A stretch of DNA of 64,000 bases from Syntrophales bacterium (GTDB lineage Bacteria; Desulfobacterota; Syntrophia; Syntrophales; UBA2210). The DNA lies in NCBI GenBank assembly GCA_036825195.1, contig DAISYQ010000004.1, forward strand, positions 73,111 to 137,110. The letters run 5' to 3'. Both the position numbers and the translations under genes were made by a program. How positions within the stretch are numbered: position 1 is the stretch's first letter; each line of letters starts with the position of its first letter. Under the pieces are notes generated by a model. The model saw only the letters and a list, made by a program, of their open reading frames with translations. It made no database searches and was not told the DNA's origin. This document shows positions 263-28,272 of the stretch, one piece after another.

Positions 263-3200
263 GGTATTGACCTCCCGATGGATTTTCACCCTCTATTGCA
301 GCGAATGCACGTTTCTTTTTCCTACCGAACACCTTCTCAATCAGCACATAGAAGAGAGGAGCGAAAATAACCACCAGAACGGTGGCGGTTACCATCCCTC
401 CCAAGACGCCGGTACCGATGGCGTTTTGCGCCCCCGCTCCGGCACCGGTGGTTACGACCAAGGGAAGGATCCCGAACCCGAAGGCCAGAGAAGTCATGAT
501 GATCGGACGAAAACGCAATTTTACCGCCTCCAGGGTTGCGTCGATCAACCCCATACCCTGTTCCAATCCGCTCTTGGCAAACTGGACGATCAGGATGGCG
601 TTCTTGGTGGTCAACCCCAGCGTGGTTAAGAGAGCGATTTGAAAATAGACATCATTGGCCATCCCCCGCCAGCTCGACGCGATAATTCCGCCGATAACTC
701 CGAGAGGCAGAACCAGCAGAACGGAGATGGGAATGGTCCAGCTTTCATAGAGCGCCGCCAGGCACAGGAATATGACGAAGATCGAAAAGGCATACAGCAT
801 GGGTGCCTGAGAACTGGACATCCGCTCCTGGTAGGAAAGACCGGTCCAGTCAAAACCGAATCCCTGAGGCAGCTGTGCAACCGCCTCTTCCATGGCCTGC
901 ATGGCCTCCCCTGAGCTCCTTCCCGGCGCCGGTTCTCCCCAGATATTAATGGAAGGAAATCCGTTAAAACGATTCAGCTGGGGAGAGCCCGAAGTCCAGT
1001 GTCCGGAGGCAAAGGAGGAGAATGGGACCATCTTTCCCTGGGTGTTTCGGACATAGAGTTTTTCCAAATCCTTGGGGAGCATGCGGTACGGAGCGTCCGC
1101 CTGAATGTATACCCTCTTCACCCTGCCGCCCTGTACAAAGTCGTTGACATAGGCACTGCCAAAGGCCGTCGAGAGTGTGGAGTGGATAGAGGTGATGGAA
1201 ATCCCAAGGGCACCCGCCTTTTCCCAGTCCACATCTATGCGGTATTCAGGGACATCGCTTCTGCTGTTGGGCCGGACCTTGGTTACTCTCGGATCCTTGG
1301 ATATAATTCCAAGGAGCTGGTTTTGCGCATCCATCAGGGCCTGATGACCGAGGCCGCCCCGGTCCAGCAACTGAAAGTCGAATCCCTTGGACATCCCCAG
1401 CTCGGGAACTGCCGGGGGCGTGAAGGCATATATCAGGGCGTTGCGTATGTTCGCAAAGGCCATCGTGGCCCGCAATGCAACGTTCGGTGCTTTTTGATCA
1501 GGTCTTTTTCGAAGATCCCAGTCCTTCAGTTTGCTAAACACCATTCCGTTGTTCTGTGACCGCCCAGAAAAACTGACACCGGTAAGGGTCATCACAGATT
1601 CCACCGAATCTGCTTCATTTTTCTTAAAATAATCGTCAATTTGATTGGAAATTTCCTGAGTCTGTTCCATCGTGGAGCCTGTCGGCATCATCACCTGGGC
1701 CAGCAATATCCCCTGGTCTTCATCGGGAAGGTAGGCGGTGGGCATGCGGAGAAACAGCATCCCCATGACGACGATAATCACCAGGAATACGGCGATGTAG
1801 CGCTTTGTTCTTGATAGGGAATACCCGACCAGTCGTACATACAGACGTCTGAAGCGGAAGAATATGCGGTTAAAACCTCTGAAAAACGGCCGCAGGAAAA
1901 AGATGGCATTCTCCGCCTCGCGCCCCGCGTGCACCGGTTTGAGAAGCGAGGCGCATAACACCGGTGTCAGGATCAGGGCAACGACTACCGACAGGAGCAT
2001 GGAGGAAATAATGGTAACGGAAAACTGACGATAGATCACTCCCGTTGAACCGGGGAAGAAGATCATGGGTCCGAACACGGCCGACAGTACCAGGCCGATG
2101 CCGATGAGCGCACTCGTGATCTGTTCCATGGATTTGGCCGTAGCCTCCATGGGCGGAAGGCTCTCCTCGGCCATGATCCGTTCCACGTTTTCCACCACGA
2201 CGATGGCGTCGTCAACCAGAAGACCGATGGCGAGAACCATGGCGAACATGGTCAGCATGTTGATGGAGAATCCGAAAAATCCCAGAACGGCGAACGTTCC
2301 CAGAAGCACCACCGGTACGGCGATCGTCGGTATCAGTGTGGCGCGCAGGTTGCCCAGGAAAAGCCACATAATCAGGAAGACCAGGAAAATGGCTATGATG
2401 AGGGTCTTTACCACCTCATTGATAGACACCTTGATGAAGGGTGTGGTGTCCATCGGGTAGGTAACTTTGATCCCCGAAGGAAAGTACCGGCTCATTTCCG
2501 CCATCTTGGCCTTGACGGCATCGGCCACATCCAGGGCGTTTGCGCCGGCTGCCTGACGGATGGCGATACCCACCGCCTCTTTCCCGTCAACAGAACCCTT
2601 AATGTCATAGACTTCGGTGCCCAGTTCGGTACGGGCCACATCTCCGATTCGAACGATAGATCCATCCGGATTGGTGCGCAGGGGGATATCGGCAAATTCG
2701 TCGGGAGTCGACAGCATGTTCTGAACAACAATAGGGGCGTTCAAACGCTGGCCTTTCACCGCCGGTGCCCCGCCGAACTGGCCGGCGGAGACTTCCACGT
2801 TGTAGGCCTTGAGGGCCGCCAGCACATCGGCTATGGTCAGGCGGTAATCTGTGAGCTTCTCGGGATTAACCCAGACGCGCATCGTATATCCGCCGCCGAA
2901 GATCTCCACTTCACCCACACCAGGTACACGCGCCAGGACCGATTCCAGATTGGTTGTGGCGTAGTCCGCCAGATCGATACGGTCCATGCGTCCGTCTTCC
3001 GAAACCAGCCCAACGACCACCAGATAATTGTGTGTGGACTTGCGGACCGAGACACCGCGATTCTGGACCACATCGGGGAGACTGGGCAGGATGGACTGGA
3101 CCTTGTTCTGGACCTTGGACCAGGCGATATCCACATCCGTTCCCGGAGCGAAGGTCAGCTCCAAACGGGAGGCACCTGCCGAATCGCTGGAGGCAGACAT

Positions 3201-3434
3201 GTAGATCAATCTGTCCAGGCCGGTCATCTTCTGTTCAATGCTCTGGGTAACGCTGTTCTCAACGGTCTGGGCCGAAGATCCCGGATATGAAGCAGAAACA
3301 GAGATAGAAGGCGGTGCCATTTCCGGATACTGAGAGATGGGCAGATTGTAGATCGCTATGATTCCCACCGCCATAATGACGATGGCAATGACCCAGGCAA
3401 AAACCGGTCGTTTCAGGAAAAATTTCGATAGCAT
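255..3434 (-). CDS. RND multidrug efflux pump, inner-membrane permease (AcrB/MexB family)
   Basis: 1059-aa ORF. The N-terminus MLSKFFLKRPVFAWVIAIVIMAVGIIAIYNLPISQYPEMAPPSISVSASYPG is the canonical HAE1 start. It sits in an adaptor/pump/OMF operon. Confidence 0.95.
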   Translation of the reverse strand: MLSKFFLKRPVFAWVIAIVIMAVGIIAIYNLPISQYPEMAPPSISVSASYPGSSAQTVENSVTQSIEQKMTGLDRLIYMSASSDSAGASRLELTFAPGTDVDIAWSKVQNKVQSILPSLPDVVQNRGVSVRKSTHNYLVVVGLVSEDGRMDRIDLADYATTNLESVLARVPGVGEVEIFGGGYTMRVWVNPEKLTDYRLTIADVLAALKAYNVEVSAGQFGGAPAVKGQRLNAPIVVQNMLSTPDEFADIPLRTNPDGSIVRIGDVARTELGTEVYDIKGSVDGKEAVGIAIRQAAGANALDVADAVKAKMAEMSRYFPSGIKVTYPMDTTPFIKVSINEVVKTLIIAIFLVFLIMWLFLGNLRATLIPTIAVPVVLLGTFAVLGFFGFSINMLTMFAMVLAIGLLVDDAIVVVENVERIMAEESLPPMEATAKSMEQITSALIGIGLVLSAVFGPMIFFPGSTGVIYRQFSVTIISSMLLSVVVALILTPVLCASLLKPVHAGREAENAIFFLRPFFRGFNRIFFRFRRLYVRLVGYSLSRTKRYIAVFLVIIVVMGMLFLRMPTAYLPDEDQGILLAQVMMPTGSTMEQTQEISNQIDDYFKKNEADSVESVMTLTGVSFSGRSQNNGMVFSKLKDWDLRKRPDQKAPNVALRATMAFANIRNALIYAFTPPAVPELGMSKGFDFQLLDRGGLGHQALMDAQNQLLGIISKDPRVTKVRPNSRSDVPEYRIDVDWEKAGALGISITSIHSTLSTAFGSAYVNDFVQGGRVKRVYIQADAPYRMLPKDLEKLYVRNTQGKMVPFSSFASGHWTSGSPQLNRFNGFPSINIWGEPAPGRSSGEAMQAMEEAVAQLPQGFGFDWTGLSYQERMSSSQAPMLYAFSIFVIFLCLAALYESWTIPISVLLVLPLGVIGGIIASSWRGMANDVYFQIALLTTLGLTTKNAILIVQFAKSGLEQGMGLIDATLEAVKLRFRPIIMTSLAFGFGILPLVVTTGAGAGAQNAIGTGVLGGMVTATVLVVIFAPLFYVLIEKVFGRKKKRAFAAIEGENPSGGQYHE

Positions 3435-3446
3435 TGGGTGCCTCCG

Positions 3447-4664
3447 TTACTTCGATTCTGAGGATTTCGGGGCTGAATTTTTTTGTTCGTCACCCTTTTC
3501 TTCGCTACCTGTCGCAAAGGGAACAACCTTTACGGAAGCACCGGGCCTGATCTTCTGTATCCCTTCAACAATCACCTGATCGCCGGGAGTCAACCCTGCC
3601 GATACGAGCCATCGGCTTTCAATGGCCCGATCAAGCGTGAGCATACGCTGCTGGACCTTTCCTTCGGCATCCACGATCAGGGCAATCGGATCCCCCTTCG
3701 GTGTACGTGAGACGGCCTGCTGGGGAATAAGGATAGCGTTTTTTTGAACGCCCTCCTGCACGATCGCCCGGACAAACATGCCCGGCAGAAGAATACCCTT
3801 CGGATTGGGAAAGACAATCCGTAGAATAACCGATCCGGTCGTCGGATCGACCGTGACATCACGAAATTGAAGGGTCCCCTCCATTGAATATGTGGTACCG
3901 TCATCCAGAATGAGACAGACCTTCTTCTGATTTGTTCCACTTTGATCCAGAAGGCCCTCTTCCAGGTTACGTCGCAACCGCAACACATCGGTCGTGGATT
4001 GAGACAAATCTACGTATATGGGATCCAGCCGTTGAATGGTTGCCAGAGCCACGGGTTGATACGCCGTCACCAGGGCGCCATCGGTCACGCTGGATTTCCC
4101 GATGCGCCCGGGAATTGGTGCTTTGATCCGGGTGTAATCCAGGTTTATACGGGCTGTTTTCACCATCGCTTTCCAATATTCAATGTCGGCTTCGGTCTGT
4201 TTTAAAGCGGCAGCCGCATCGTCATAATCCTGTTGGCTGACCGCTTTAGCGACAAGTAATTCTTCGAAGCGCTCGGATCTCGATCGAACCGCAGACAGAC
4301 TGGCCTCAGCCCTACCGAGTGAAGCTCTTGTATTGTCGAGCGCCGCCTGAAAGGGAGCAGGATCGATCTGATAGAGGATCTGGCCCGCTTCGACGGAGGA
4401 GCCTTCCGTAAAGAGGCGTTTTTGTATGAGACCGCTGACTTGGGGTCGGATCTCCGCAATACGAAAGGCGGATGTGCGACCCGGTAATTCGGTGGTCAAT
4501 ACAACCTCTTGCGGTTGTACCGTTACGACGGCTACCTCCGGTTTCGGGCGCGGGGGTTGTTTCTGTTCCGCCCCGTTACACCCTCCGAGCAACAGTCCTC
4601 CCAGCAGGGCCACCGGCAATAGTTTCCACATCATCGATTTGCAACCAGTTCCATTGATCAACAT
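3447..4664 (-). CDS. RND efflux periplasmic adaptor (membrane fusion protein, AcrA/MexA family)
   Basis: ORF 3447..4685. The preferred start is the ATG at 4664, which has GAGGAG 6 nt upstream. Lipoprotein-like signal ..LLPVALLGGLLLGGC, and the coiled-coil/barrel-sandwich sequence pattern of MFPs. Located directly upstream of the pump. Confidence 0.9.
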   Translation of the reverse strand: MLINGTGCKSMMWKLLPVALLGGLLLGGCNGAEQKQPPRPKPEVAVVTVQPQEVVLTTELPGRTSAFRIAEIRPQVSGLIQKRLFTEGSSVEAGQILYQIDPAPFQAALDNTRASLGRAEASLSAVRSRSERFEELLVAKAVSQQDYDDAAAALKQTEADIEYWKAMVKTARINLDYTRIKAPIPGRIGKSSVTDGALVTAYQPVALATIQRLDPIYVDLSQSTTDVLRLRRNLEEGLLDQSGTNQKKVCLILDDGTTYSMEGTLQFRDVTVDPTTGSVILRIVFPNPKGILLPGMFVRAIVQEGVQKNAILIPQQAVSRTPKGDPIALIVDAEGKVQQRMLTLDRAIESRWLVSAGLTPGDQVIVEGIQKIRPGASVKVVPFATGSEEKGDEQKNSAPKSSESK

Positions 4665-24816: not shown

Positions 24817-25077
24817 CTACATGCCCTTCCGCTTCTTCACGGTATCCGCAATTTCGAGTATGGTGGTCATCTTGTCTTTGGGCGGCGCATTGAAACAGCG
24901 GTTCCACTCATCGTCCGTCAGGTATTCTCTCAGATACTCTTCTACCGGTATCAGGTTCTGCCAGCATCCGAGCGTCCTCTGGCAGGGGAGAGTACCTTGT
25001 TCGCGCCTGCAGTAGGCAAAGGTAACCTCCCCTCCCAGTCGGGGACAGCGCAATATCAAATCGTCAAATCTATTCAT
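24817..25077 (-). CDS. Small Cys-containing hypothetical protein
   Basis: 86-aa ORF between trpB2 and rarA on the same strand. It contains five Cys residues and I recognise no family. Confidence 0.35.
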   Translation of the reverse strand: MNRFDDLILRCPRLGGEVTFAYCRREQGTLPCQRTLGCWQNLIPVEEYLREYLTDDEWNRCFNAPPKDKMTTILEIADTVKKRKGM

Positions 25078-25157: not shown

Positions 25158-26519
25158 TTACGGTTTCGGAAACTGCCCGATAATCTTCTTCGCCCGTTCG
25201 ATCTCATCATCGGGGAGGCGGTAATCGGTCAGCTTTCCGGAAAGATAGGCATCATATGATGCGAGATCTACCAGTCCGTGACCACTCCAGTTGAAGAGGA
25301 TGATCTTCTCCTTTCCCTCTTCCTTCGCCCGCTGCGCCTCCTGAATCACGGCCGCAATGGCGTGGTTCGTTTCGGGAGCGGGTATGAACGCCTCGGACCG
25401 TGCCCACTTCACCCCCGCATCGAAGGTTTCAAGCTGGTTGTACGCCCTGGCCTCGAAGATACCCTCTTTTACCAGGTGGCTGACGATCGGGGCCATACCG
25501 TGGTATCTGAGCCCCCCCGCGTGAATGGGAGCGGGAACGAAGTCGTGACCGAGAGAGTACATGGCAAGAAGCGGTGTGGTCATGGCCAGATCGCCGAAAT
25601 CATACCCGTACGGGGCCTGCGTGAGGGTCGGGCAGGAAGTCGGTTCCGCTGCGACGATCGAAACCTCTTTACCGTGTATCTTGTCGCGTGCAAAGGGCAG
25701 GGCTATTCCGGCAAAATTACTTCCCCCGCCGGCGCAGCCGATAACCACGTCGGGATATTCGCCTATCTTTTCGAGCTGCTTCTGGGCCTCCAGGCCGATA
25801 ATCGTCTGGTGGAGCATGACATGATTCAGAACGCTCCCCAGCGAATAGCGTGAGTCTTCCTTGCCGACTCCGTCTTCAATCGCCTCGCTGATGGCGATCC
25901 CCAGGCTCCCGGGGGAATCGGGGGTCTGGGCAAGGATCTTTCTCCCCGTCTCGGTTATATCGCTCGGACTGGGAAAACATTTGGCCCCCCATGTCTGCAT
26001 CATCAGGCGACGATACGGTTTCTGGTCATAACTGACCCGGACCATGAAGACCCGGCACTCGAGACCGAACATGTTACAGGCCATGCTGAGCGCGCTTCCC
26101 CACTGACCGGCTCCGGTTTCAGTGGAAATCTTTTTAATCCCGAACTCCTTGTTGTAGTACGCCTGAGCGACGGCAGTATTGGGCTTGTGCGATCCCGCGG
26201 GACTGACCCCTTCATGCTTGTAATAGATTTTAACCGGGGCATCGAGTAGTTTCTCCAGATTGTGTGCCCTATAGAGGGGGGTAGGTCGCCAGAGCACATA
26301 CTTTTCAAGTACCTCTTCCGGGATGTCGATCCACCGTTCGGCACTCATCTCCTGTTCGATCAGGTTCATGGGAAAGATCTGAGCCATGTCTTCCGGCTTC
26401 AGAGGCTGACCCGTTCCCGGATGAAGGGGCGGACTCATCGGGGTCGGCATATCGGGCATAATATTATACCACTGCCGGGGAATTTCGTCCTCATTCAACA
26501 ACACCTTTACCTGTTTCAT
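25158..26519 (-). CDS. trpB: Tryptophan synthase beta chain, TrpB2 (stand-alone) type
   Basis: 453 aa. The long N-terminus (..[13 protein letters not shown]..) and the PLP-lysine context [16 protein letters not shown] are typical of TrpB2. There is no trpA or other trp gene nearby. Confidence 0.9.
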
Positions 26520-26596
26520 ACCATATTCTCCTTTGTACTATTTATTACCCAGAGATCACATGCCATGCCTCACCTTTCCCGCAGGCACGGCATATA

Positions 26597-26629
26597 CAAA
26601 AACGCCATGAGAAGATCCCATGGCGTTTT
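26597..26629 (-). terminator. Second intrinsic terminator in the trpB2 leader (symmetric, A-run/T-run flanked)
   Basis: AAAACGCCATG pairs with CATGGCGTTTT (11-bp stem, 9-nt loop). Read on the minus strand it is followed by TTTTTG. It lies 78 nt upstream of the trpB2 ATG. Confidence 0.6.
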
Positions 26630-26639
26630 ATTATCGAAT

Positions 26640-26667
26640 AAAAAACCGTGGGATAATCCGCCCACGG
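26640..26667 (-). terminator. Attenuator terminator downstream of the Trp-codon leader peptide
   Basis: Minus strand: CCGTGGG-cggattat-CCCACGG followed by TTTTTT. The 5' arm can alternatively pair with GTCCACG at the leader stop codon, which would form an antiterminator. Confidence 0.55.
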
Positions 26668-26686
26668 CCATTAGACAGTTCGGCAC

Positions 26687-26728
26687 TTACGTGGACAGAT
26701 CAGAGTTGACCTCCCACCACCAGCACAA
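26687..26728 (-). CDS. Candidate trp leader peptide with three consecutive Trp codons
   Basis: Minus strand: TTG TGC TGG TGG TGG GAG GTC AAC TCT GAT CTG TCC ACG TAA, with AGGA 6 nt upstream of the TTG. An in-frame GTG at 26758 would instead give MLVRGPIGNGLCWWWEVNSDLST. The Trp codons occupy 26714-26722. Confidence 0.5.
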   Translation of the reverse strand: MCWWWEVNSDLST

Positions 26729-26879
26729 TCCGTTTCCTATGGGTCCCCGTACTAGCACTACGTCACTGCCTCATAAGTTTCTATCAATAGAAACACAGCC
26801 GAAATCAAATGTCAAGTGAAAATTCGAAAGATCGATTGAATCATAATCCATTATAGTGGAAGAATTACCCGAAAGACAT

Positions 26880-26908
26880 TTGACGAATCTATCCTTTTTG
26901 AGTATAAA
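26880..26908 (+). promoter_or_regulatory. Sigma-70-type promoter candidate for purD-purH-purE-tsaC
   Basis: TTGACG (26880-26885), a 17-nt spacer, then TATAAA (26903-26908). It lies 39 nt upstream of the purD ATG. Confidence 0.5.
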
Positions 26909-26946
26909 CTCAAAACTTACCGTACAATCCACTCAGGGAGAAAAAG

Positions 26947-28272
26947 ATGATCAGAATACTCTTAATCGGAAACGGCGCCAGGGAACATGTCATAGCCGAA
27001 ACGGTAAAACGATCGACTCATCCTGTCGCGCTCTTTTCCTGCATGAAAGCCAACAATCCGGGCATTGCATCTCTTTCGGAAAAGGTGCTGACGGCACGCT
27101 ACGATGACCGGCAGAAGATCGTGCAGTTTGCACGGGAAAACAGTGTTGATTTTGCAATCATCGGCCCGGAGGACCCTTTGAACAACGGCATTGTCGATTT
27201 CCTGAATGAGGAAGGGATCCCTTCCGTGGGCCCGACAAAGAGCCTGGCACGGCTGGAAACGTCAAAGGCTTTCACACGGAATCTGCTGGAAAAATACAAT
27301 ATTCCCGGTAATCCGCGGTTCAGGACCTTCTCTTCTCTTGAGGGAATTGAAGCGTTTATATCATCCCTTGCCGGTGTTGTCGTAAAACCGGACGGCCTCA
27401 CCGGCGGCAAGGGCGTTATGGTCCAGGGAGACCACTTTCAGACAAAAGAGGAGGCCATCGAACTGTGCAGAGAGATTCTCGAAGAACATTCTTCTGTCAT
27501 GGTCGAAGAAAGGTTCGAGGGTGAGGAGTTTTCACTCCAGTGCCTGTGCGACGGCGTAACGGTCGTGGCAACGCCCCCCGTACAGGATCATAAAAGGAGG
27601 TTTGTAGGCGACCGAGGACCGAATACGGGAGGGATGGGGTCCTACTCTCTCGAGGGTCATTCCCTTCCCTTTCTGGAAATGGAAGACGTGGCAGAGGGTC
27701 TCGCCATTACCCGGAAGGTCGCCGAGGCCATCTACCGGGAGACCGGCGAATATTACAAGGGTATCATGTACGGCGGTTTCATTGTCACAAGAGATGGGGT
27801 CCGGTTGCTCGAGTATAACGCGCGATTCGGCGATCCGGAGGCCATGAATATCCTCCCCCTCCTGAAGACGGATTTTGTGGATATCTGCAGGGCCGTTATC
27901 GACGGAACACTGAAGGATTTGACCATAGAATTCGAAAACAAGGCCACGGTCTGTAAATATATCGTGCCCAAGGGATACGGTCTTCCCGCAGATCACCCCG
28001 ATGCCGGTTCCACCTCATCGAAGATCGAGGTGTCGGATATACGTGATGCGAAGCTGTACTACTCATCCGTGGACAAACGGGAAGACGGCCTGTATATGAC
28101 CACATCACGGGCGATCGGTATCGTTGGAATAGCCGACGATCTGGACGGCGCCGAGAAGGTGGCGGAGGGGGCGATAGCATCGATCAAGGGCTCCATAGAT
28201 CATCGGCCCGATATAGGAACAAAGGAACTGATAAACAAGAGAATCCAGCATATGAAAGAGATACGAGGGTAA
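26947..28272 (+). CDS. purD: Phosphoribosylamine--glycine ligase
   Basis: 441 aa. Start MIRILLIGNGAREHVIAE, an ATP-grasp core, and a ..GIVGIADDLDGAEK.. C-terminal region. Confidence 0.95.
   Translation: MIRILLIGNGAREHVIAETVKRSTHPVALFSCMKANNPGIASLSEKVLTARYDDRQKIVQFARENSVDFAIIGPEDPLNNGIVDFLNEEGIPSVGPTKSLARLETSKAFTRNLLEKYNIPGNPRFRTFSSLEGIEAFISSLAGVVVKPDGLTGGKGVMVQGDHFQTKEEAIELCREILEEHSSVMVEERFEGEEFSLQCLCDGVTVVATPPVQDHKRRFVGDRGPNTGGMGSYSLEGHSLPFLEMEDVAEGLAITRKVAEAIYRETGEYYKGIMYGGFIVTRDGVRLLEYNARFGDPEAMNILPLLKTDFVDICRAVIDGTLKDLTIEFENKATVCKYIVPKGYGLPADHPDAGSTSSKIEVSDIRDAKLYYSSVDKREDGLYMTTSRAIGIVGIADDLDGAEKVAEGAIASIKGSIDHRPDIGTKELINKRIQHMKEIRG

Follow-up and report, generated by a model that had tools for sequence, protein, structure and literature searches.

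TrpB2 enzymes that are encoded away from trp operons have an unsettled role, and indole salvage or O-phosphoserine-dependent tryptophan synthesis has been proposed for them (Busch 2014; Hettwer & Sterner 2002, both as cited in PMC11917138). A 64-kb stretch of DNA from a Syntrophales-like Desulfobacterota bacterium (hereafter the window, in which all coordinates below are positions) carries a trpB2 gene of this kind, and a preliminary description of the sequence had pointed to a Trp-codon leader with terminators in front of it. Is this gene tied to the tryptophan supply by a ribosome-mediated attenuator, and is such a device shared with its relatives? Our analysis indicated that the region upstream of trpB2 very probably acts as a transcription attenuator of the leader-peptide type, by which the level of charged tRNA-Trp is sensed and the expression of trpB2, and probably that of a small open reading frame (ORF) behind it, is set accordingly. 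A conserved attenuator of this type would imply that more TrpB2 is needed by the cell precisely at times when little tRNA-Trp is charged.

The leader region is located between the divergent purD gene (26947-28272, plus strand) and trpB2 (26519-25158, minus strand), and all leader and trpB2 features are on the minus strand. The 453-aa product of trpB2 was assigned to the TrpB2 family by the NCBIfam models NF009057 (750.7 bits, cutoff 366) and TIGR01415 (664 bits, also above its cutoff). Upstream of this Trp-pathway gene, the list of ORFs contained a leader ORF of 23 codons, (GTG)LVRGPIGNGLCWWWEVNSDLST (26687-26758), which ends in ...CWWWEVNSDLST before a TAA stop codon at 26689-26687. It contains three consecutive Trp codons, UGG UGG UGG, at 26714-26722, and these would be the regulatory codons. 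Every sequence feature that the preliminary description had named on the minus strand, including this short ORF with its TGG TGG TGG run ahead of trpB2, was found where it had been placed. The choice of start codon had to be revised. The description had preferred the internal TTG at 26728, which has AGGA 6 nt upstream, over the in-frame GTG at 26758. Both codons are present, but the relatives start their leaders with an ATG 9-14 codons before the first Trp codon, often with a Shine-Dalgarno sequence, and GTG 26758, with GAGG at 26769-26772 and a 10-nt spacing, is therefore the likely start.

We fetched 160 loci (L numbers), each encoding a TrpB2 relative at 64-94% identity and together comprising 847 kb. 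The Trp-codon nonamer TGGTGGTGG occurred once in the 64-kb window when both strands were counted. In the related loci, 26 of its 51 occurrences were found within 450 nt upstream of trpB2 and on the same strand, a zone that makes up ∼4% of the strand-sequence searched and in which ∼1 occurrence was expected. Together with the folding of the leader described below, this enrichment in front of trpB2 is more than chance. The other occurrences that were checked were rejected as leaders, being located within coding regions in other frames or in out-of-frame ORFs without a terminator context; one of them, in an iorA-like gene (VLVVEE), was coding sequence in another frame. A search for further W-rich leaders in the window found none.

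The promoter that had been suggested for the leader, with a -35 box TTGACA (26810-26815) and a weak -10 box TTCTAT (26787-26792) separated by a 17-nt spacer that ends in TGTGT, is present, and its position is conserved in relatives. Of 25 leaders, 23 had a TTGAC(A/T) box at a distance of 72-119 nt ahead of the first Trp codon, and the string TGTGTTTCTAT of the -10 region was retained in L081-L085 and in L002. Thus, on sequence grounds, the leader ORF has a start codon and a Shine-Dalgarno sequence downstream of a promoter and should be translatable.

The leader of 271 nt folded with a z score of -5.6 relative to shuffles, and six segments, here numbered 1 to 6, take part in its helices. Hairpin 1:2 (26691-26720) had a minimum free energy (MFE) of -11.0 kcal/mol. 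The Trp codons are included in its 5′ arm, and its 3′ arm is segment 2, GAUCUGUCCACG (26690-26702), with the stop codon directly after it. Segment 2 is also the 5′ strand of an antiterminator with segment 3, CGUGGGCGGAUUA (26654-26666), as the 3′ strand. Segment 3 at the same time provides the 5′ arm and the loop of terminator 1 (hairpin 1, segments 3:4; 26640-26669), which reads GGCCGUGGG-loop-CCCACGGUU and was called by the terminator scan. Its stem at 26669-26644 is followed by U6 down to 26640, and it folded at -14.3 kcal/mol. Terminator 2 (hairpin 2, segments 5:6; 26598-26629), AAAACGCCAUGGGA-UCU-UCUCAUGGCGUUUU with a U5 run, has its stem at 26629-26599 and its U-run to 26598, and folded at -18.9 kcal/mol. 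The pairing of GTCCACG with CGTGGGC, which had been proposed as mutually exclusive with the terminator, turned out to be the core, GUCCACG:CGUGGGC, of a 13-bp antiterminator.

The mechanism was tested by folding the leader with the nucleotides under a modelled ribosome footprint masked. With the A site of the ribosome on the second or third Trp codon, the RNA was covered to about 26707-26704. In this stalled state the MFE structure was the 13-bp antiterminator between 26702-26690 and 26666-26654 plus GCC:GGC, and at -21.1 kcal/mol it beat terminator 1 at -14.3 kcal/mol with the whole of terminator 1 present. When the ribosome was placed at the stop codon, segment 2 was covered and terminator 1 formed, and without a ribosome both hairpin 1:2 and terminator 1 formed. 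The comparison of alternative structures that the preliminary description had asked for thus gave the antiterminator as the MFE once a stalled ribosome was modelled. The geometry was compared in 21 leaders. In these, the 5′ strand of the antiterminator began 10-19 nt past the last Trp codon, and in 16 a ribosome at the stop codon would cover it completely. When the RNA from the edge of the stalled ribosome to the loop of hairpin 1 was considered, the 5′ arm of hairpin 1 was partly or wholly paired upstream in 21/21 leaders, over 5-16 nt and at -12.9 to -27.6 kcal/mol, and this pairing took up the majority of the arm in 19/21. The folds and the geometry follow the classical logic of trp attenuation.

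The WWW mini-ORF and the same hairpins were conserved upstream of trpB2 in about 27 of the fetched loci, mostly Syntrophales-like metagenome-assembled genomes (MAGs). The search for such mini-ORFs in orthologous upstream regions, which had been recommended, was thereby successful, and the concern that the mini-ORF and the hairpins might be unconserved in related genomes was not borne out. The same hairpin set followed the WWW mini-ORF in L001, L003-L009, L081-L088, L090, L092, L120 and L123, and the loci that share it come from MAGs and metagenome contigs labelled Syntrophales, Smithella or 'deltaproteobacterial'. In L116, L122 and L117, the leader upstream of trpB2 was more divergent. The leaders of L079 (Desulfarculia), L069 (KSB1), L021 and L038 (Cytophagia, WRWWWW) were built differently and likewise combined a WWW ORF with an antiterminator and a terminator. 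The leader peptides varied, and the conserved part was WWW, to which DLST, encoded by segment 2, was added in the closest clade; divergence of the peptide outside WWW is what is expected for sensing at the codon level.

A MAFFT alignment (A1) of 18 leaders was scored for cells paired and for pairs changed on both sides. The core of helix 1:2 was paired in 93.8% of the cells with both-side changes in 4/6 pairs, and the corresponding values were 87.0% and 4/9 for the antiterminator 2:3, 95.3% and 4/12 for helix 3:4, and 95.0% and 4/10 for helix 5:6. For helix 5:6, neither the observed pairing nor the covariation was reached by any of 500 shuffles, and slid registers were 35-52% paired. RNAalifold, run blind, recovered the three hairpins 1:2, 3:4 and 5:6, and 10 of its 30 pairs were compensatory. 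The 12-bp antiterminator of L116/L122 showed a clean compensatory change (GGUAUGAAACCG:CGGUUUCAUACC versus GGUGUGAAACCG:CGGUUUCACACC). Both of the hairpins with U-runs that had been noticed in front of trpB2 are accordingly present and covarying. A covariance model (R1) built on alignment A1 and searched in about 0.9 Mb had one match in the window, at 26596-26728 with 112 bits. Its matches elsewhere were located solely directly upstream of trpB2, except for weak reverse-strand echoes of the palindromic terminators.

In other phyla, the orthologous gene was found behind different leaders. T-box leaders (RF00230, 102-115 bits, above gathering) were located directly upstream of trpB2 in the Bacillota-like loci L023, L030, L033, L037, L039 and L044, for example at 2657-2950 in L023, and the specifier position read GAA-UGG in the two alignments inspected. 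In the Bacteroidota-like loci L070, L073, L075, L146 and L157, the stretch about 190-50 nt before trpB2 contained a leader peptide with ...SWRWRWWH... and, after it, a terminator that was also conserved, CACGGGGCAUGUU..CUGCCCCGUUUUUUUU. Control of a stand-alone trpB2 by the charging of tRNA-Trp thus appears to recur through three devices, namely T-boxes, WRWRWW leaders and the WWW attenuator, and TrpB2 would be linked to the supply of tryptophan in three phyla or more.

From these features we infer the following course of events. Transcription would start near 26780 from the TTGACA/TTCTAT promoter, and a ribosome would translate the 23-codon leader. With plentiful tryptophan, the ribosome would reach the stop codon at 26689 and cover segment 2 (26702-26690), which would let segments 3 and 4 pair into terminator 1 so that RNA polymerase stops at U6, and a polymerase that escaped would meet terminator 2. 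Without translation, segment 1 with its Trp codons would pair with segment 2, and both terminators would form. When charged tRNA-Trp is scarce, the ribosome would stall on UGG UGG UGG and leave segment 2 free to pair with segment 3 over 13 bp, blocking terminator 1. The freed segment 4 and its U-run could then form a helix with segment 5 and the preceding A-run, which would delay terminator 2 and allow read-through into trpB2.

This last step, the relay from terminator 1 to terminator 2, would depend on a helix 4:5, UCCCACGGUUUUUUAUU (26653-26637):AAUAAAACGCCAUGGGA (26632-26616), which in the window folded at -12.9 kcal/mol when the RNA did not yet include the 3′ arm of hairpin 2. The sequences CCCAYGGC, in the 3′ arm of hairpin 1, and GCCRUGGG, in the 5′ arm of hairpin 2, are complementary, and in the window the helix extends further to take in the terminator 1 U-run and the A-run preceding terminator 2. 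Helix 4:5 was 84.9% paired in register across the 18 leaders, compared to 35-54% in slid registers, with both-side changes in 1/10 pairs. Before segment 6 exists, it paired in 21/21 leaders at -9.2 to -19.9 kcal/mol, taking up 6-11 of the 8-15 nt of the 5′ arm of hairpin 2, the majority of that arm. The motif GCC(R)UGGG...CCCAUGGC was almost invariant in both hairpins.

Several observations weigh against the attenuator or against parts of it. The -10 hexamer is poor, with 3/6 matches, and a consensus promoter scan made no call, so what argues for the promoter is solely its conserved position in relatives. In 5/21 leaders, a ribosome placed at the stop codon left part of the antiterminator strand uncovered, namely in L085, L004, L116 and L122, in which an early stop reduced the covered share to 11-60%, and in L123 (75%). 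The closest clade (the window and L081-L085) varied little, and most of the covariation therefore came from comparison between sub-clades, and the register of the MAFFT alignment in helix 1:2 was imperfect for the L003 group. As to the relay, helix 4:5 did not covary, its columns being almost invariant, and 494 of 500 shuffles reached the observed pairing. There is a C.A mismatch in the helix in the clade of the window itself, and terminator 2 was the equilibrium structure once the whole of hairpin 2 was present, so its antitermination would have to be kinetic. These points on helix 4:5, and the U-runs that both hairpins carry in this clade, speak for an attenuator in which the leader acts on terminator 1 alone, whereas terminator 2 would be unregulated and would reduce basal read-through by partial termination. 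We regard such independence as the less plausible arrangement, for three reasons. Hairpin 1 was conserved yet without a U-run in six relatives (L005, L007, L008, L092, L120 and L123), and the Trp codons can reach the sole terminator there only through 2:3 and then 4:5. The stems are nearly invariant and mutually complementary, as expected if each segment has two partners. Finally, an unregulated terminator as strong as terminator 2 (-18.9 kcal/mol, U5) would block induction. For the window itself, we consider the chances about even that the two terminators are coupled through 4:5 in a six-segment relay resembling that of the his operon. The tandem terminators of the preliminary description are in place as two terminators in series, but hairpin 2 is probably more than a back-up, since its 5′ arm can pair with the 3′ arm of hairpin 1 and six relatives have no U-run after hairpin 1.

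Two further explanations would dispense with codon-level attenuation. TnaC-type sensing needs conserved residues and Rho-dependent termination. A nascent WWW peptide that sensed free tryptophan in this way would stall the ribosome at high Trp and give induction by Trp excess, and a short Trp-containing peptide upstream of a pyridoxal phosphate enzyme of indole/Trp chemistry does recall that arrangement. However, the sequence, length and C-terminus of the peptide are unconserved beyond WWW, the terminators are intrinsic, and the covarying antiterminator is placed for stalling at the codon level, and moreover trpB2 in the Bacillota-like loci is preceded by a T-box with the specifier UGG, a device that is responsive to uncharged tRNA-Trp. 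We rejected the TnaC-type sensor, as the peptides share WWW only and intrinsic terminators are present, and find it scarcely credible. A small RNA (sRNA), or a riboswitch-like leader that binds a protein or a ligand, with an incidental WWW ORF, is also very unlikely. It would account for the near-invariance of GCC(R)UGGG...CCCAUGGC in both hairpins, and a short terminated transcript could act in trans, as has been reported for rnTrpL of Sinorhizobium (PMC6614838). But in every case the WWW codons belong to the frame of a short ORF with its own start codon, and they turn up again in leaders of unrelated build (L069, L079, L116, L122 and L038), which is difficult to account for without translation, and a role in trans would supplement attenuation, not replace it. 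No Rfam family matched at gathering in the whole window or in 8 related loci, and a search of 26400-27050 with a limit of E <= 10 gave nothing relevant, as the weak matches to two sRNAs (STnc370 and ncr1015, E about 1-2) reflect only the two terminators. Membership in Trp_leader (RF00513) was rejected as its covariance model had no match at gathering, and a T-box (RF00230) was rejected in the window as the model did not match there, though it matched the Bacillota trpB2 loci and the test thus had power. TRAP-regulated trp leaders of Bacillus have nine to eleven (G/U)AG repeats spaced 2-3 nt apart that overlap the antiterminator. A regular expression for >= 4 (G/U)AG repeats found none in 26520-26790, so a TRAP target was dismissed as well. 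The attenuator that we favour would function like the trpL-type attenuators and is uncatalogued in Rfam, and a covariance-model-ready RNA element is available for annotation.

Compared to trpL of E. coli and other enterobacteria (RF00513), the leader in the window has the same parts: a leader ORF with tandem Trp codons, a segment 1 that holds these codons and pairs with segment 2, an antiterminator 2:3 against an intrinsic terminator 3:4, and a stop codon beside segment 2. The logic of superattenuation, termination and read-through is also the same. The two differ in that there is no homology in sequence or structure, as judged by the lack of an Rfam match, and in that trpL has two Trp codons and controls trpEDCBA, whereas the leader in the window has three, has a second terminator in series and precedes a stand-alone trpB2 and a small ORF in a Syntrophales-like Desulfobacterota host. 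The his attenuator of Salmonella and E. coli is built from six segments that pair as A:B, C:D and E:F or alternatively as B:C and D:E. The leader in the window may resemble it as a chain of three hairpins in which an inner segment has two possible partners and which a stalled ribosome would flip as a whole, and the his arrangement matches those relatives in which hairpin 3:4 has no U-run. In contrast, the middle hairpin in the clade of the window is itself a terminator (U6), two terminators stand in series, the regulatory codons are Trp codons, and step 4:5 in the window is based on complementarity without covariation. A Trp T-box (RF00230) likewise gives terminator read-through when tRNA-Trp is uncharged and is found upstream of orthologous trpB2 in the Bacillota-like loci, but it binds the tRNA directly, without translation, and the window has none. 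Actinobacterial trp attenuators (Corynebacterium, Streptomyces) were identified by comparative genomics as Trp-codon leaders with GC-rich terminators (PMC1262725). Their segments, which interact multiply, are conserved across large distances, an explanation that is also proposed here for the invariant GCC(R)UGGG, and they belong to other taxa with other sequences (PMC1262725). In C. diphtheriae, the gene called 'trpB2A' is an additional trpB that shares an operon with trpA, not a stand-alone gene of the TrpB2 family (PMC1262725). Rodionov et al. 2004 (PMC545781) was discarded as a possible source for a delta-proteobacterial trp attenuator, as that paper does not mention tryptophan. We found no description in the literature of a Trp-codon leader for a gene of the TrpB2 family, in agreement with the impression in the preliminary description, although surveys in subscription journals (Vitreschak 2004; Merino 2008) may mention one.

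Which genes would the attenuator control? The description of trpB2 as stand-alone holds in so far as no other trp genes are located alongside, but a conserved small ORF follows the gene. This ORF (24817-25077, minus strand) encodes 86 aa with four Cys, begins 80 nt past trpB2 with no terminator seen in the gap, and is probably co-transcribed with trpB2. Homologues were found by tblastn directly after trpB2 in 89 of the 160 loci, representing several phyla, with C11, C23, C32 and C38-W39 invariant in the motif RCPRLG..F.YC..PC..CW. There was no Pfam or NCBIfam match. The named homologues were all called 'hypothetical protein', most entries being nameless, and a 100%-identical entry was present in a Syntrophales MAG. 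An AlphaFold model (predicted local distance difference test score 77.6) gave no fold match in the PDB (best E 3.9). The four-Cys protein may be a partner of TrpB2.

In one lineage another gene is part of the arrangement. In the Cytophagia MAG L038, at 1898-4365, the WRWWWW leader and a terminator were followed by a gene for a 296-aa protein resembling SbnI/SerK (free serine kinase) and then by trpB2. The kinase-like gene matched NF033589 (E 4.6e-23) and NF053625 (E 1.3e-10) of NCBIfam, both below the cutoffs, and adjoined trpB2 in L038 only, not in the window or in the other loci. Its location beside trpB2 fits with the reported O-phosphoserine dependence of TrpB2 enzymes (Busch 2014, as cited in PMC11917138). 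Both the four-Cys protein and, in that lineage, the serine-kinase-like gene are flagged by the leader as likely members of the regulated unit. A more far-reaching and tentative proposal, which we think is rather doubtful as a whole, would be that the Syntrophales-type leader is a distinct, uncatalogued RNA family, a double-locked six-segment attenuator with two U-tract terminators in series through 4:5. It would control a two-gene module of trpB2 and the four-Cys 86-aa protein, with the SerK/SbnI-like gene and trpB2 as the corresponding module in L038, and TrpB2 would be the core of an O-phosphoserine-dependent Trp route, induced by Trp starvation, with a small partner protein.

Between terminator 2 and the trpB2 ribosome-binding site (Shine-Dalgarno GGAG at 26528-26531, 8 nt before the ATG at 26519), a third hairpin without a U-run is located at 26557-26596 (-22.6 kcal/mol). 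It is not conserved: L081-L084 lack it, and L085 has only part of it. The GCCRUGG motif recurs in its arms, AUGCCGUGCC/GGCAUGGCAU, which might thus pair with segment 6.

Two relatives had unusual leader regions. In L089, at about 1040-1345, both hairpins were kept, and an AT-rich inverted repeat, GGAATGATGGAATATTGGAATG ... CAATATTCCAACATTCCAATTG, occupied the place of the leader ORF; the repeat appears to have been inserted there, with loss of the WWW ORF. L002 (80% TrpB2 identity) shared the promoter string TTGACA-N14-TGTGTTTCTAT, at about 2700-3000, and also had a terminator. The mini-ORF there, MKGWSRHVF before its stop codon, has a single Trp codon, which makes it a degenerate or a different leader. 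Among the neighbours of trpB2, the gene after it in L073 was of the LOG family and not a trp gene. In the Desulfobacterales-type loci L020, L025, L107 and L121, a putative indolepyruvate:ferredoxin oxidoreductase-like (iorA-like) gene, recognized by the translated motif ...VLVVEETD... alone, was located about 1.2-1.5 kb downstream of trpB2.

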